Source: Candidatus Poribacteria bacterium
GTDB lineage: Bacteria; Poribacteria; WGA-4E; WGA-3G
NCBI GenBank assembly: GCA_965246985.1
Contig: OZ251998.1
Span: forward strand, 6,505,657 to 6,569,656
Reading direction: 5' to 3'
DNA length: 64,000 bases
The notes beneath the pieces are model-generated. The model was given only the letters and a program-made list of their open reading frames with translations. It searched no databases and was not told the origin of the DNA. Both the position numbers and the translations under genes were made by a program. This document shows positions 3,201-57,051 of this stretch, piece after piece (within the stretch, counting starts at the first letter, position 1; every line of letters begins with the position of its first letter).

Positions 3201-3300
3201 TAAATTAGTCAGGACTTACGCAATTTTTCCATGAAACGCTACATATTGCGCCATTGACGAGGTTAGGAAACCTCGCCAGCAAGGGGGACTGCGTAAGTCC
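3201..3300. repeat. palindromic extragenic element at the toxin-antitoxin/thiS boundary
   Basis: An inverted repeat, ggacttacgcaa ... ttgcgtaagtcc, encloses an inner hairpin cgaggttaggaaacctcg followed by ccagcaaggggg. Related cgaggtt...aacctcg + ccagcRaggg units occur at 56893-56967, and ccccgccagcgaagg occurs at 46139-46153. Confidence 0.4.
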
Positions 3301-3383
3301 TATTAGTATAACACCTGCAAGACCGCTATATCAAGCGATAAAATTATGTCTGTCCGTCTTTGTTGGTTGGCTTTGTAGACGCA

Positions 3384-6860: not shown

Positions 6861-6984
6861 AAATATTATTATACCTTATTCTGACTTTTAATGCAAATAT
6901 TTCGGTATATTCAACACCAGGGTCATTTAGTTTTAAACAAATTCTCGGATTGTCTAAATTTTTGGATCCTCTTTTTCAAGCTCG

Positions 6985-8265
6985 GCGCGGTTCCATGAAG
7001 ATTAAATAATTAATTCGGTAATAATCCGACATAGTGTAGCAACTCCTGTGACCCGCCTTTGAACTGTTCCATGAAGTCGCTGACTTTCTCCTGAAGGGCT
7101 GTCCAGTCATTGCTGAGACGATGCAGATGTATGACAGCTTGACGCGCCCAGCGCCACAACTTCTCAATCGGATTCGTCCAACAGGCATACGTTGGGAGCT
7201 GCAATATCTCAATAGGGAGTTTCTCAAGTTTGCCTATTTTCTTTGACGGTTTCTCGCTCCAATTCGGTGGGGTCGGTCTAACAAACCTCGTCGTCTGTGG
7301 CAGAAGTGCTGCCATAAGATTCGCGTGAAAGTGGATCGCCCGATTGTCCTGGATCAAATAGATGCGTTCAGCGTTTGGGTAGCGTTGGCAAATCTGGGTG
7401 TAAAATGTATGGAGTGCGACAACCGTGCAGCTTTTGACTTGCTGATAAACAACATCTCCGGTGTGTGGGTTGAGCGCCCCGATGCCATAGCAGGTCTCCT
7501 CTGGGAGATAACTCTGGCGTGCCAAAGGACATTTCGTCCCTGTCTCCGCCCAGTCTTTTGCGACTCTCGGTTGTAGATTGAAACTAAACTCGTCTTGGTA
7601 AACGACAACGCAAGTTTCTGGGTTTTCACGGGCTTCTTCTAACGCTTGCTTGATGCGAGAAAGTTTTTCAGCATAATCGGTATCAGGACTCCGCAGATAT
7701 TCTCTGGCACGCTTATAGCTGAGACCCAAGCGTGAGAAGATCTGATGAATGCCGGGGAGCGATAGACCCTCAAGCCACGGCACGACCTGACCGAGACTGC
7801 GGAGCGTCCAGCGCGTTTGATGCTCATTGACGCTTCCCGGATCCTGACCGATTGCCACTAAGAGTTCCGACCCGGCTTCTTCGGGCGACTTAGGTGAAAA
7901 AGCAGGTTTGCGACCTCGACCAGGTTTATTAGACAACCCGCTAATACCGTGTTCGCGATACCGACGCAGCCAAGCATAAACGGTATCGGGGTCGCGTTTT
8001 TTCAACAAACCTCTGCGGGCGACTTCATGTGGAGAAAAGCCTTCATGGATTTTCAACAACGCTGTCGCACGCTCTCGAAGATAAGCCGGTTCGCCTTTAT
8101 CCCGAAGATCAACGAGGGCTTGTATTTCGCCTTCAGTTAACTCCAACTTATGGTGTTTTGCCATCAGAGAATACCTCCTTTGGCAATAGGATAACACGAA
8201 TAACAATATTACCGAATTAATATTTTAATCTTCATCAAACCGCGCCTACCGGGCCTGGGGGGTCC
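6985..8265 (-). mobile_element. IS630-family insertion sequence, intact, with about 39-bp imperfect terminal inverted repeats
   Basis: Left inverted repeat 6985-7023 is ggcgcggttccatgaagattaaataattaattcggtaat. Right inverted repeat 8227-8265 in reverse complement is ggcgcggtttgatgaagattaaaatattaattcggtaat. They enclose one DDE transposase gene. The exact ends and target-site duplication were not resolved. Confidence 0.8.
7010..8164 (-). CDS. IS630/Tc1-mariner family DDE transposase
   Basis: An N-terminal helix-turn-helix region (…LRDKGEP…WLRRYREHGISGL) is followed by a DDE_3 core (VVYQDEFSF…, IYLIQDNRAIH…, PTYACWTNPIEKLW). Start taken at MAKHHKLELTEGE (ATG at 8164). Confidence 0.85.
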   Translation of the reverse strand: MAKHHKLELTEGEIQALVDLRDKGEPAYLRERATALLKIHEGFSPHEVARRGLLKKRDPDTVYAWLRRYREHGISGLSNKPGRGRKPAFSPKSPEEAGSELLVAIGQDPGSVNEHQTRWTLRSLGQVVPWLEGLSLPGIHQIFSRLGLSYKRAREYLRSPDTDYAEKLSRIKQALEEARENPETCVVVYQDEFSFNLQPRVAKDWAETGTKCPLARQSYLPEETCYGIGALNPHTGDVVYQQVKSCTVVALHTFYTQICQRYPNAERIYLIQDNRAIHFHANLMAALLPQTTRFVRPTPPNWSEKPSKKIGKLEKLPIEILQLPTYACWTNPIEKLWRWARQAVIHLHRLSNDWTALQEKVSDFMEQFKGGSQELLHYVGLLPN

Positions 8266-8384
8266 AAAATCGGGCTAAAAACCGAAAACTAAATAGCCCT
8301 GATTCAACACTTCTTTGCATATTGGTTTCTTTTATGTTATACTATAAAAGTCCCATACAAATTACAATACATAGGAACTCAATA

Positions 8385-28529: not shown

Positions 28530-28658
28530 TCATTGAGGCGCAAGGAGCCGGGAGAGCAAGTTTGGTGTAAGGGTTGGGTGACCCAACCCCTACGAGATCA
28601 GAAACTTCATCAAATCGCGCCTAAAAGAAGTAGGTATGGCGCAAAGAACGTAAGTCCG

Positions 28659-29003
28659 CTAATCCACTAAAGAGATAACCCCTTTCTTGCGTTGGAGTAC
28701 GGCATCGTAGAACCGCATCGTGCCAACGCAGTCTTGGATACTTGATACCGGTTCCCGGTTCTCACGAATGGCGTTAACAAACTCGGTGAGACTGATGCCG
28801 TCGCCGGTCAGTTCGCCGTTGCGTTCATCAGAGAAATTAGAGGTAAAGGTATTACCAGATTCGGTGAAATGCTGAGCACCCCACAACCCATCTAAAACAA
28901 TGTATTCGTGTTGTCCAGTAATTTCGATGTAATCGTAGTTACGCCGCCACAACCGTTGGCTGCTGAGTTGCCTGCTGTAATGCCAAGCAATGTTAGCCCC
29001 CAT
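28659..29003 (-). pseudogene. ectopic duplicated 3' fragment of the Gfo/Idh/MocA oxidoreductase gene (43256-43560)
   Basis: The 114-aa ORF is nearly identical to the last roughly 100 aa of the 43256-44203 protein (…SQRLWQRNYDYIEITGQHEYIVLDGLWGAQHFTESGNTF…LQRKKGVISL). The downstream hairpin gtaagggttgggtgacccaacccctac is copied too (28567-28595 vs 43222-43250). A solo IS630-like end (cttcatcaaatcgcgcc, 28602-28618) abuts it. Confidence 0.7.
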
Positions 29004-36245: not shown

Positions 36246-36529
36246 TTTTTGTCAATTTTTTTAAGAAAAATCAAAAAATTGTTTTCTTCGGAAACTTTAC
36301 ATCATTTCTAATATCATCTATCATCGGTTTATCATCGGTTTCGCCGAGGTACGGGAGTTGGGTGAACAATGTTTGGTGTAGGGGTCGGGGCCCCCCAACC
36401 CCATAGGTGTAAATTTAAGAAAAAAGTTATGCGCTAAGGCCCTCCGGACCGGTAGGTGCGGTTTTGCGGCGTACCATAGGTGTAAATTTAAGGGAAAGTC
36501 TGTGTATTTTTAGTGATTAAAAAAGTGTT

Positions 36530-47236: not shown

Positions 47237-47995
47237 ATGAAAATCATAATAGCGAATTTAATGCTTGCGAGTTTAATTGTTCTGGGTCTAATGTTTGCCG
47301 GTGTTAGCAGTGCCGAATTGGATCTGAAAACCGTTGTCGGGATGTGGCTCTTTGATGAGGGCAAGGGGGATACGGCAGTGGATTCCTCTGAAAATGGCAA
47401 TGACGGGGAACTTGTGAACGGTCCGAAATGGGTAAAGGATGGTAAGTTCGGATCCGCGCTGGAATTTGATGGAAATGAGAGTAAAGGACATGTCGTTGTC
47501 GGGGATTTGGGCTTGTCTGGAACGGTCACGTTAACTTTGTGGGCAAATCCGAGTGATGCCGCCGATGATGATCGGTTAATATCGAATCTCAGTGGGCCAA
47601 CGAATCCGGCTTTCTCAATTCGGTTCCAAAGTGGCGCGGTTGACATTTGGGGCAGGGCGTGGAAACCCGTCATCCCAAAATTTGATGACAATCAATGGGG
47701 ACACTATGCGTTTGTATTGGATGGCGAGGGAAACGCGACGGGCTATTACAATGGCAAAGAAGAGGACACAGTTGCCGATACCTATATTTTTACGGATATC
47801 GGTATTGGGGCAACTTTTTTGCATCAATGGGGACAATATTTTTCCGGTCAGTTCGACGGGATTGCATTTTTCGATGTCGCGCTGACTGAAGATGATATTA
47901 AAATCCTCATGACAAGAGGACTCAAGTCCGCGTTGGCGGTTTACTCGGCAGGTAAATTAGCCACTACATGGGGAAATATAAAAGTCAACCCATAA
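47237..47995 (+). CDS. secreted concanavalin-A-like lectin/LamG-type domain protein
   Basis: Signal peptide; …GNDGELVNGPKW…GSALEFDG… resembles the Laminin_G_3/DUF1080 fold. Confidence 0.55.
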   Translation: MKIIIANLMLASLIVLGLMFAGVSSAELDLKTVVGMWLFDEGKGDTAVDSSENGNDGELVNGPKWVKDGKFGSALEFDGNESKGHVVVGDLGLSGTVTLTLWANPSDAADDDRLISNLSGPTNPAFSIRFQSGAVDIWGRAWKPVIPKFDDNQWGHYAFVLDGEGNATGYYNGKEEDTVADTYIFTDIGIGATFLHQWGQYFSGQFDGIAFFDVALTEDDIKILMTRGLKSALAVYSAGKLATTWGNIKVNP

Positions 47996-56419: not shown

Positions 56420-57051
56420 GAAAAAACATAACCGAACACACCAAAAACCCGTTTTGGTTCTCACTGCGAAGCAGGACAAAACGGAGCAGAAACCCAATAT
56501 ACAAAAAATCTAAGATTATGCACCTTTTTGGCATACAAATTGCGTCATTAATAATTGAAACCTTCAGTCCACCTATATGCTATCGGTGAATAAATTTTGC
56601 CCGATTTCGTGCAATTAGGTATAAAACATGCCCGATTATGTGCAGTTCTTCTGGGATTTTTGCAAAAAGTAGAGCAGGACTGTATTGTTCAAATCGGCAC
56701 AGAATTTGCTGATGTTAGTTGTATAGAGTGATAAGGTTTTCATTCGGTACGGAAAAAGAAGCATTTTTACTGTCTTTTCAAGAATCGGTGTCTCTATAAG
56801 GCAGAGGCATTCAATCTTTCGCTTTCTGGAAATTTCCTATTTTCAAGAAAATCGAAGTAACTTTCAACAAAGATATGGTAAAACCCACAATTACCTATAC
56901 ATTGGCGAGGTTAGGAATGCAGATCGCATTTGGGCGCGTACGCCGCAAAACCTCGCCAGCGAGGGAGAGTGCGGAATTGTTATTCATTGAAATGTAAACA
57001 TATTTTCGGGTTTTACTATAATAAGTATTAAGCACCTGTTGTACAGTCGAG

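Follow-up and report, generated by a model that had tools for sequence, protein, structure and literature searches.

Results

An IS630-type element between two half-hairpins

The window, by which we mean the whole 64,000-nt stretch of DNA analysed here, derives from Candidatus Poribacteria (assembly GCA_965246985.1, contig OZ251998.1, positions 6,505,657–6,569,656); the Poribacteria in question are uncultured sponge symbionts. A transposase gene (7010–8164, minus strand) encodes 384 aa, and its stop codon (7010–7012) falls inside the left terminal repeat of a mobile unit located at 6995–8235 (minus strand). This 1241-bp core (ATGAAG...CTTCAT) is exactly what is missing from an orthologous allele, L119. 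The terminal inverted repeats proper (left, 6995–7023; right, 8207–8235) are 29 bp each, with 27/29 positions of one matching the reverse complement of the other. Such 29-bp repeats bounding a 1241-bp single-gene unit make up an IS630-type layout (1.1–1.3 kb expected). The core length recurs in 22 other full-length copies, the longest contig measures exactly 1241 bp in 11 homologue clusters, and near-identical copies of the window IS are numerous elsewhere.

Immediately outside the core lie the two halves of a hairpin. The left half (6984–6994) consists of the arm GGCGCGGTT (6984–6992) and loop nucleotides CC, and the right half (8236–8250) of loop nucleotides CA, the arm AACCGCGCC (8238–8246) and TACC, corresponding on the other strand to the GTAG head of a REP; the C of the right-hand CA is a duplicated nucleotide. 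Arms, loop nucleotides and core repeats jointly form a 40-nt inverted repeat of 90% complementarity (6984–7023/8207–8246), which a first-pass annotation had taken as the ~39-bp ends of an element extending over 6985–8265. A repeat of about that length does exist; L119, which is empty, and the 22 other full-length copies, whose arms vary, show, however, that the true repeat stops at 29 bp and is followed by two loop nucleotides and a 9-nt target arm, and that the true mobile unit is 6995–8235. Across >100 elements the 29-bp core repeat is conserved and the outer nucleotides vary by copy. No TA target-site duplication borders the window IS either: the left flank is TC, and the TA on the right (8247–8248) is part of the REP's GTAG head, which lies on the opposite strand.

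The encoded protein matches the NCBIfam profile NF033545 (transpos_IS630; 169.3 bits, cut-off 100; E 1.3e-49) and Pfam DDE_3 (70.6 bits, cut-off 28.6), and residues 29–126 match HTH_23, HTH_28, HTH_29 and HTH_32, giving the N-terminal bipartite helix-turn-helix of the family. With the transposase ORF, the profile match and the terminal repeats, the earlier call of an intact IS630-family element is upheld. Residues D191, D273 and E334 are invariant among 31 homologues and define a catalytic spacing of D-81-D-60-E, in which the 60 residues from the second D to E (usually ~34–36) result from a clade-specific 24-aa insert between them (residues 297–320), as seen by comparison with an annotated Alteromonas IS630 transposase. 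A fold search with a predicted model of moderate confidence (mean pLDDT 66) returned the Mos1 mariner and Sleeping Beauty transposases as best matches, and a sequence search of the PDB with the transposase profile returned only a spurious Sel1-repeat match. Annotated plasmid-borne IS630 transposases share <30% identity with the encoded protein. Judged from its sequence, the enzyme probably performs cut-and-paste transposition like ISY100, and the window IS is very probably one active-looking copy of a 1241-bp IS630/Tc1-mariner family resident in Candidatus Poribacteria.

Empty and filled alleles

At the same locus in a sister strain, L119 is 99.7–100% identical to the window flanks, lacks exactly 6995–8235 and carries an unoccupied hairpin, GGCGCGGTT-CCA-AACCGCGCC; the window reads ...GGTT-CC / core / CA-AACC..., against the uninterrupted hairpin of L119. 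The entered hairpin is carried by an older host MITE of 143 bp (6918–8301, comprising 6918–6994 and 8236–8301) whose terminal repeats are 17 nt long (CAGGGYYATTTAGTTTT) and which has the 9-bp direct repeat ATTCAACAC on either side (6909–6917 and 8302–8310). The intact 143-bp MITE with the same 9-bp repeats is present in L119, and other copies of it, with different 9-bp repeats, occur in L001, L126 and L129. The target of the window IS was a REP-like hairpin with a GTAG head inside a pre-existing MITE that had its own 9-bp duplication. Filled and empty alleles of this site coexist in one metagenome sample (L119, L121), which suggests ongoing activity of the IS in Poribacteria.

Since the 1384-bp composite of MITE and IS (6918–8301) is found elsewhere in L001, we considered movement of the composite as one unit with 9-bp duplications. 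The outer arms of the two composites differ at 7 positions in ~66 nt and the remaining ~1320 bp, IS included, at only 3; this arm divergence, together with the IS-free MITE of L119, favours independent IS insertions into different MITE copies. Two further candidates, a 2-nt duplication (CA or AT) and a hairpin arising by internal deletion from IS ends, were dropped in view of the variable arms across copies and the empty alleles.

A second empty/filled pair places the insertion within a gene. Compared with L139/L140, where a 293-aa gene is intact, L131 contains exactly 1241 bp more, inserted at CGGCGGCTG^CAGCCGC. There is no duplication at this site; removal of the 1241 bp alone, with no further nucleotide, is what restores the reading frame. 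(The empty allele, L139/L140, comes from another sample.) The interrupted palindrome encodes an Ala-run that shows no indels in homologues, down to 52% identity, and is therefore native to the gene. Joining the flanks rebuilds the target exactly in both cases (L119, L139); the two pairs record duplications of 1 nt (C) at the L119 site and of 0 nt at the L131/L139 site. As at L131, genes are occasionally disrupted by these elements, which also disrupt REPs.

Flanking stems across the family

The geometry of the window site was compared across 23 full-length copies, whose transposases are 77–100% identical to that of the window and whose cores all measure 1241 bp. All 23 sit at hairpin tips, and a stem of ≥5 bp with two nucleotides on each side was present in 22/23; the arms fall into several classes and two arms are unique. 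A relative with 64% identity, represented by two copies, exhibited the same geometry with other arms. When 83 miniature elements were included, 78 of 106 elements had a stem of ≥5 bp in the exact two-nucleotide geometry, and at least 32 distinct arm ends were in use, including unique palindromes inside coding sequence. Perfect flanking arms of ≥6 bp were found for 59 elements of a 79-element subset, compared to a mean of 7.7 (maximum 15) upon random re-pairing of left and right flanks. A clean stem was missing from 28/106, perhaps through decay, through recombination between copies or because ends were mis-paired.

TA stood on both sides in 0/23 full-length copies and in 1/106 elements overall; the IS630 hallmark of insertion at TA with TA duplication is thus absent from the Poribacteria clade. 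The behaviour known for REP-targeting ISs is found in part: the target is split at a fixed position and rebuilt upon joining, whereas specificity for a single REP consensus is lacking. For the common flanks TC/CT and AG/GA, a 3-nt loop with a 1-nt duplication is indistinguishable from a 4-nt loop (TCCT, AGGA) without duplication.

REP hairpins as landing sites

REPs are defined by a GTAG head and a hairpin architecture (Nunvar et al. 2010, PMC2817692), and the target hairpins, with their 5′ GTAG head, stem-loop and high copy number, conform to this definition. The motif GGTAGGYGCGGTT occurs three times in the window (0.1 expected), and 908 kb contained 105 unoccupied hairpins of class H1 and 26 of class H2, with 3- and 4-nt loops. 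At one locus (L145), H2 hairpins adjoin a fragment of a REP-associated tyrosine transposase (RAYT; 66-aa C-terminal fragment, NF047646, E 9.4e-13; no match in a Pfam scan of the fragment), which supports the identity of H2 as REPs.

Miniature relatives and remnants

The window holds a MITE of the same family at 46023–46138: 116 bp, non-coding, and bounded by IS-type terminal repeats (46023–46050 and 46111–46138) that match those of the IS at 27/29 and 23/29 positions. More than 80 similar small elements, among at least 117 matched stretches, were found in Poribacteria genomes; they are non-coding, ~100–330 bp long, share the terminal repeats and sit mostly at hairpin tips. The first-pass annotation had described 46021–46140 as a derivative of the IS. 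The element is real and has both terminal repeats, but it is not an internal-deletion product: only its ends are common to the IS, and its interior is a REP module without similarity to the IS interior. This module contains a hairpin, GGTGCGGTT-AGGA-AACCGCACC, followed by TACC (46066–46091). Such internal REP hairpins offer further landing sites, so the elements nest inside one another, and MITE-in-MITE insertions at hairpin loops were seen in L002, L009 and L013.

The flanks of the 46-kb MITE do not pair. To the left (46010–46022) lies half of an H2-type REP (TACCGCAAACTGT), and to the right (46139–46200) lie CA and an H1-type arm (AACCCCGCC), which represent the right half of another type of MITE (with ...ATATTTTACTATA at its end), an assignment made by comparison with L001 (1041–1155); L130 has the same right flank. 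The mismatched half-hairpins hint that two copies recombined in the past. No empty allele is on record according to exact-protein look-ups of three genes nearby (46370–47011, 44517–45884 and 47237–47992). A homologue search yielded a 97%-identical sigma factor (P0121) and, through it, the sister strain L135, where the MITE, its flanks and the gene order are identical, and which therefore reveals no ancestral state; P0122 was rejected as a source, being a paralogue in a different gene context.

Scored as a junction of element end and hairpin arm, the proposed single-end remnant near 28.6 kb proved significant against background. The pattern AAWCTTCATNNAACCGCGCC (≤2 mismatches) has four matches in the window against 0.01 expected: one at either end of the IS, one at the right end of the 46-kb MITE and one at 28602–28621. 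The junction (28600–28623, plus strand) comprises the last ~11 nt of a right core end (AGAAACTTCAT), CA, a hairpin arm (AATCGCGCC) and TA. It is located in the spacer 3′ of an oxidoreductase gene fragment, an old paralogue with 85% identity to the full gene, and the proposal that it ties the IS to a rearrangement is not supported here: lying ~350 bp from the truncation point, the remnant does not mark the breakpoint of the fragment. The match of the supposed solo end at 36440–36470 is confined to GGTAGGTGCGGTT, which represents the GTAG head and left arm of a REP-like hairpin; no IS core is present. We annotate 36449–36463 (plus strand; CCGGTAGGTGCGGTT) as a REP-type half site, a target-type rather than an IS sequence; the same half-site module also occurs inside MITEs (e.g. 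L046).

Alternative explanations of the palindromic flanks

We considered whether the transposase may instead recognise a short duplex motif, T-NNN-A, as a stretched TA, with palindromy a by-product of REPs commonly carrying that motif. This reading, improbable in our view, accounts for the closing pair of the stem, which is T·A in 69/78, and for the predominance of REP classes H1 and H2 among targets. A motif that occurs about once per 16 nt cannot, however, by itself produce flanking palindromes of 5–12 bp in 78/106 elements; moreover, unique non-REP palindromes are used too (L125, L131, L151, L152, L039, L073, L080, L103), the closing pair is C·G at eight sites, and even palindromes show a spacing of 4 nt instead of 3. 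A T-NNN-A sequence preference may coexist with structural recognition, or may merely reflect the REPs available.

Spread by homologous recombination or gene conversion through arm homology, with no transposition, appears very unlikely. Many copies do sit in the same REP classes, and the chimeric flanks of the 46-kb MITE, L062 and L097 indicate that recombination between copies occurs, but the arms are only 5–12 nt long, where a unique palindrome was entered no donor flank is homologous to it, and filled sites carry the loop nucleotides of the local empty hairpin rather than those of a donor.

Two readings that dispense with a hairpin target are scarcely credible. In the first, that of the earlier annotation, a conventional IS630 with ~39-bp inverted repeats (6985–8246) inserted at TA, gave rise to a MITE by deletion and left solo ends at breakpoints; the 40-nt inverted repeat, the TA after the right end and the significant 28.6-kb junction fit it, but the outer 11 nt on each side are retained in the empty allele and differ among copies around a constant core repeat, TA is missing on the left (and flanks none of the 23 full-length copies on both sides), and neither remnant behaves as supposed, the 36.4-kb motif having no IS core and the 28.6-kb junction lying away from the gene-fragment truncation point. 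In the second, the flanks are made by the element itself, as hypervariable tips of a long repeat or as an inverted duplication of one flank, and "empty" hairpins are excision scars, which would suit the private complementary arm pair of each copy and the presence of same-class hairpins inside MITEs but conflicts with the palindrome of L131/L139 in an intact gene whose Ala-run length is kept to 52% identity, with an H1/H2 GTAG head that stands on one side only while the element is found in both orientations relative to it, with the H2 hairpins that flank the RAYT gene fragment as genuine REPs do, and with the 131 unoccupied H1/H2 hairpins in 908 kb.

Discussion

TA targeting is regarded as a defining, mechanistically understood trait of the IS630/Tc1/mariner superfamily. 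Here, comparison of sequences leads us to conclude, with a probability of about 80%, that the window IS and its miniature relatives insert at the exact centre of hairpins or palindromes and not at TA. Hairpin-axis targeting is already known in other IS families; our literature search found no report of it for IS630/Tc1-mariner.

On this reading the element integrates precisely where a DNA hairpin or palindrome has its axis of symmetry, such that two former loop nucleotides come to sit between each element end and its stem arm. With this two-nucleotide geometry the central nucleotide of a 3-nt loop is duplicated, and 4-nt loops and even palindromes are left with no duplication. Because so many different arm sequences are used, we infer that the transposase recognises folded (hairpin/cruciform) or strongly distorted DNA, not sequence. 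Each transposon 3′ end would be joined two nucleotides upstream of the descending stem arm, presumably by standard DDE chemistry. If the targets were ordinary B-DNA, it would be difficult to see how one fixed transpososome could generate staggers of 0 nt as well as 1 nt. Severe distortion of the target DNA, with flipped-out target bases, is known from the Mos1 strand-transfer complex (PMC5481204). More speculatively, the 24-aa insert would be a likely determinant of hairpin target choice.

We are evenly divided over the broader proposition that a lineage of this superfamily abandoned its hallmark TA, its transposase reading the extruded tip of hairpins or cruciforms, whose sequence could be almost anything, and joining the ends two nucleotides from the descending arm, with the conserved 24-aa DD60E insert acting as a structural ruler. 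If this is true, the enzyme would be a naturally structure-directed DDE integrase, and its activity would explain the nested MITE arrays that accumulate in the REP-rich genomes of uncultured sponge symbionts, of which the family is a major repeat component. A clade inserting at hairpin axes with 0/1-nt duplications would imply that DNA shape can become the target of the same fold, and the 24-aa insert offers a testable candidate determinant of that retargeting. For annotation, the arms of a split target look like an extension of the inverted repeats, and IS boundaries, duplications and "solo ends" get miscalled as a result; this happened for the window IS and is to be expected in these genomes.

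Among known systems, the hairpins themselves resemble those of REP/REPIN-RAYT in that H1 and H2 are numerous, have a 5′ GTAG (or GTAC) head and a stem-loop and, for H2, lie by a RAYT fragment; they differ in that the REPs are landing sites rather than the IS itself and that the RAYT association was seen at one locus only. The miniature elements likewise recall Correia elements and RUP, being small, non-coding, present in many copies and furnished with IS630-type terminal repeats. Correia elements and RUP have been reported with TA duplications; the Poribacteria MITEs differ from them by lying in hairpin loops, by carrying an internal REP hairpin as a new target and by forming nested arrays. 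Both Correia elements and RUP are IS630-derived bacterial MITEs (cited in PMC2817692).

ISY100 and other IS630 elements share with the window IS a single transposase with N-terminal paired helix-turn-helix and DDE_3 domains, short inverted repeats, a length of ~1.2 kb and MITE derivatives. Insertion of ISY100 is nearly exclusively at TA, which is duplicated (34/39 products; Feng & Colloms 2007, PMC2170065), whereas the Poribacteria clade enters the hairpin axis with a 0/1-nt duplication, has TA on both sides in none of the 23 full-length copies and spaces its second D and E by 60 residues.

The closest parallel in behaviour comes from REP-targeting ISs, a class named also with ISPpu9/10 and ISRm22. 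Each copy of ISPsy8, IS1397 and ISKpn1 (IS3 family) splits a REP at a fixed position, which for ISPsy8 is the hairpin's axis of symmetry, with a 3-bp direct repeat (Tobes & Pareja 2006, PMC1525189). REP-targeting members also belong to the IS110, IS4, IS256 and IS5 families, which brings that survey to five families, IS630 not among them; the surveyed elements each use one REP sequence and generate direct repeats of 2–6 bp or none (PMC1525189). For these elements, too, the joined flanks rebuild the REP, REP halves are mistakable for extensions of the inverted repeats, and recombination between copies yields hybrid flanks (PMC1525189). The Poribacteria clade is alike in splitting REP hairpins at a fixed position such that joining rebuilds them, and unlike in using many unrelated arms, including palindromes within genes, in its duplication of 0 or 1 nt and in belonging to another transposase family.

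Boundaries of the IS630-family element

A 40-nt inverted repeat (6984–7023 and 8207–8246, 90% complementary) lies on either side of the transposase ORF (7010–8164, minus strand), the sole long ORF between the two repeats, which encodes 384 aa from its ATG. The first-pass annotation had placed an intact IS630-family element at 6985–8265, and both intactness and family were borne out: within the inverted repeats, the ORF scored 169 bits against the NCBIfam IS630 transposase profile (cut-off 100, E 1.3e-49) and matched Pfam DDE_3 as well as several N-terminal helix-turn-helix models. D191, D273 and E334 were invariant in an alignment of 31 homologues, and the best PDB fold matches of an AlphaFold model (mean pLDDT 66) were the Mos1 mariner transposase and the catalytic domain of Sleeping Beauty. 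Annotated plasmid-borne IS630 transposases shared <30% identity with the window's transposase; alignment with an Alteromonas IS630 transposase located a single 24-aa insert (residues 297–320) between the second D and the E, so that 60 residues separate the two. The left terminal inverted repeat also encodes the transposase end (last four codons and stop, ...LLPN*, 7010–7023).

An exact-protein look-up recovered the same transposase at another locus, L001, whose similarity to the window reaches past the 40-nt repeat, to 6918–8301, a stretch bounded by a second inverted repeat (17 nt) and 9-bp direct repeats. L001 also holds the outer unit without transposase, with a hairpin GGCGCGGTT-TGC-AACCGCGCC where the IS sits elsewhere. 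By looking up the ArsA-like protein encoded beside the IS, we found L119, a contig of a closely related strain with 99.7–100% identity on both flanks and exactly 6995–8235 missing. The empty allele in L119 reads ...CTCGGCGCGGTT-CCA-AACCGCGCCTACC..., and the filled allele in the window ...GGCGCGGTT-CC/ATGAAG...(1241 bp)...CTTCAT/CA-AACCGCGCC... (slashes mark the element ends). Thus, the mobile unit measures 1241 bp and ends in 29-bp terminal repeats; the 9 outermost nt at either side form the arms of a hairpin older than the IS; one loop nucleotide (C) was duplicated at this insertion; and the outer MITE (143 bp, flanked by the 9-bp duplication ATTCAACAC) predates the IS. The ~39-bp inverted repeats proposed earlier are therefore not the element boundary, as L119 keeps the outer arms. 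A suggested check for TA target-site duplication likewise came out negative: TA is absent on the left side, and the TA at 8247–8248 is part of the hairpin's GTAG head, read on the other strand. Eleven homologue clusters have a longest contig of exactly 1241 bp, as though assemblers break at the repeat boundary, lending independent support to the 1241-bp unit.

The outer MITE (6918–6994 and 8236–8301; direct repeats 6909–6917 and 8302–8310) belongs to a separate 143-bp family whose members have 17-nt terminal repeats (CAGGGYYATTTAGTTTT) and a 9-bp target duplication; further copies lie in L001 (914–1173 and 2864–4250) and contigs L126 and L129. The central REP-like hairpin of the family is a repeated target of the IS.

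Insertion at the hairpin axis

A second empty/filled pair came from L131, where the IS interrupts a gene whose 242-aa frame returns on joining the flanks only with zero nucleotides removed. Its intact counterpart, protein P0241, is found in contigs L139 and L140, where the site is a palindrome, ...CGGCGGCTG^CAGCCGC...; the filled allele has exactly 1241 bp extra and zero duplication. The Ala-run encoded by the palindrome shows no indels among homologues down to 52% identity, so the palindrome is native, rather than made by insertion or excision. Together, the two pairs yield a single rule, that two loop nucleotides are left on each side. A 3-nt loop acquires a 1-nt duplication, and a 4-nt loop or an even palindrome none. 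By standard DDE chemistry, each transposon 3′ end would be attached at a point 2 nt upstream of the descending arm. At sites with the frequent flanks TC and CT, or AG and GA, 3-nt and 4-nt loops are indistinguishable, as empty loops of either length are common.

Scanning the core repeat pattern against the sequence collection matched at least 117 DNA stretches; among the matches listed, almost all derive from Candidatus Poribacteria MAGs, and the copies keep the ATGAAG start and CTTCAT end of the conserved unit constant. The ~11 nt outside the core fall into several classes or are unique, yet are complementary to each other within each copy. Full-length copies were recovered at 10 more sites with a 99%-identical transposase, at 10 sites in another metagenome (77%) and in contig L010 (82%). 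The core was exactly 1241 bp in every full-length copy examined; 22/23 showed a stem of ≥5 bp whose arms each lie exactly two nucleotides from the core, and 0/23 had TA on both sides. Among the miniature and mixed copies listed with both ends found, 59 of 79 had perfectly matched flanking arms ≥6 bp long, compared to a mean of 7.7 (maximum 15) upon random left/right flank re-pairing. Two copies of a more distant relative (64% identical, with diverged terminal repeats) sit in GCACCCC/GGGGTGC-type arms and keep the two-nucleotide geometry. All together, 78 of the 106 elements examined fit this geometry; the 106 use at least 32 distinct arm ends, and only one has TA/TA flanks. T·A closes the stem at 69 of the 78 fitting sites, which possibly reflects some sequence bias in targeting. 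One MITE of the IS family (arms AACCGC/GCGGTT) lies in a Chloroflexota-labelled contig (L057 1483–1655, MAG DAOMOK010000006.1) and may stem either from horizontal transfer between sponge symbionts or from a binning error.

The commonest arms form two classes, H1 (GTAG-GGYGCGGTT...) and H2 (GTAG/GTAC-CACAAWCT...), whose layout, a GTAG head and a stem-loop, is that of REPs as described by Nunvar et al. (PMC2817692); 908 kb contained 105 empty H1 and 26 empty H2 hairpins. In contig L145 (1–202), 66 C-terminal aa match the NCBIfam REP-associated tyrosine transposase (NF047646, E 9.4e-13), and the gene adjoins H2 hairpins, one carrying an IS copy, which suggests a REPIN-RAYT system in Poribacteria. 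Since the element enters the abundant H1 and H2 classes with either orientation towards the GTAG head, and unique palindromes as well, we infer that target shape, rather than REP sequence, is recognised.

One metagenome sample contains the window site both with the IS (L121) and without it (L119), the interrupted and intact alleles of the L131 site come from different samples, and identical transposases are found in copies at many sites; these allele pairs and identical copies suggest recent transposition. At the window site in L120 (1657–3516; ENA ERZ25069191 ctg584848), the IS interior is scrambled, with forward and reverse-complement sequence mixed (88% identity, matches on both strands), either a long-read consensus artefact or both orientations in the population.

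Other repeats in the window

Three further sites had been ascribed to the IS in the first-pass annotation. The supposed derivative at 46 kb is a MITE (core 46023–46138, 116 bp) that has an internal REP hairpin and terminal repeats at both ends, and many Poribacteria MITEs match it; its interior is unrelated to that of the IS, so the element did not arise from the IS by deletion. The two flanks are not complementary to each other: on the left is an H2 half, and on the right an H1-type half that is the right part of another MITE type. They resemble the hybrid flanks that recombination between two copies is expected to leave (PMC1525189). Arrangement and gene order here are identical in a sister strain. 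That other type (terminal repeats TAGTAAAACCC...GGGTTTTACTA, TA flanks, GGCGAGGTT hairpin) occurs at ~56870–56995, at 46139–46200 (right half only) and in L001 (1041–1155); the 56.9-kb copy has a 30-nt insert (ATGCAGATCGCATTTGGGCGCGTACGCCGC) in its hairpin loop.

At 28.6 kb, the remnant AGAAACTTCAT-CA-AATCGCGCC-TA is a genuine junction of core end and hairpin arm (4 matches in the window vs 0.01 expected); the 74-nt spacer that contains it runs from a REP to the stop codon of an oxidoreductase fragment. The fragment is an old paralogue of 43256–43555 (85% identical), and its truncation point lies ~350 bp from the remnant, so the remnant gives no support to the proposed link of the IS with that truncation. 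Adjoining the remnant is a lone CGTAAGTCC end (28646–28654) of a fourth small element, seen at 3209–3302 with terminal repeats AGGACTTACGCA / TGCGTAAGTCC around a GACGAGGTT-AGGA-AACCTCGCC hairpin; the remnant may thus be the tail of such an element. Another REP class, GTAA/GTAG-GGGTTGGG-TGA-CCCAACCC-CTAC (28561–28593, 43212–43244; variant 36372–36404), is found downstream of the full oxidoreductase gene (43256–44203) and also of its 85%-identical 3′ fragment (28667–28964).

The motif at 36.4 kb, GGTAGGTGCGGTT, is a REP head and left arm only, with no IS core sequence present, and a like motif occurs inside MITEs; it is not a solo IS end. An 18-nt direct repeat, CATAGGTGTAAATTTAAG (36402–36419 and 36475–36492), surrounds the 55-nt segment with this REP half, and may be a long target duplication or part of a 73-nt tandem duplication.

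Comparison with known systems

In the IS630 family, the ISY100 transposase alone excises and integrates its element, almost exclusively at TA, duplicating TA (PMC2170065). REP-targeting IS are known from the IS3, IS110, IS4, IS256 and IS5 families, among them ISPsy8, which enters the hairpin at its symmetry axis and gives a 3-bp repeat; the survey that lists them warns that REP halves can pass for part of IS repeats (PMC1525189). Literature searches turned up no IS630-family element reported to target REPs or hairpins, and no account of Poribacteria MITEs. The window IS belongs to the IS630 family by protein and ends but lacks its TA duplication, and is like the REP-axis-targeting IS in behaviour, differing from them by its relaxed sequence specificity and its 0- or 1-nt duplication.
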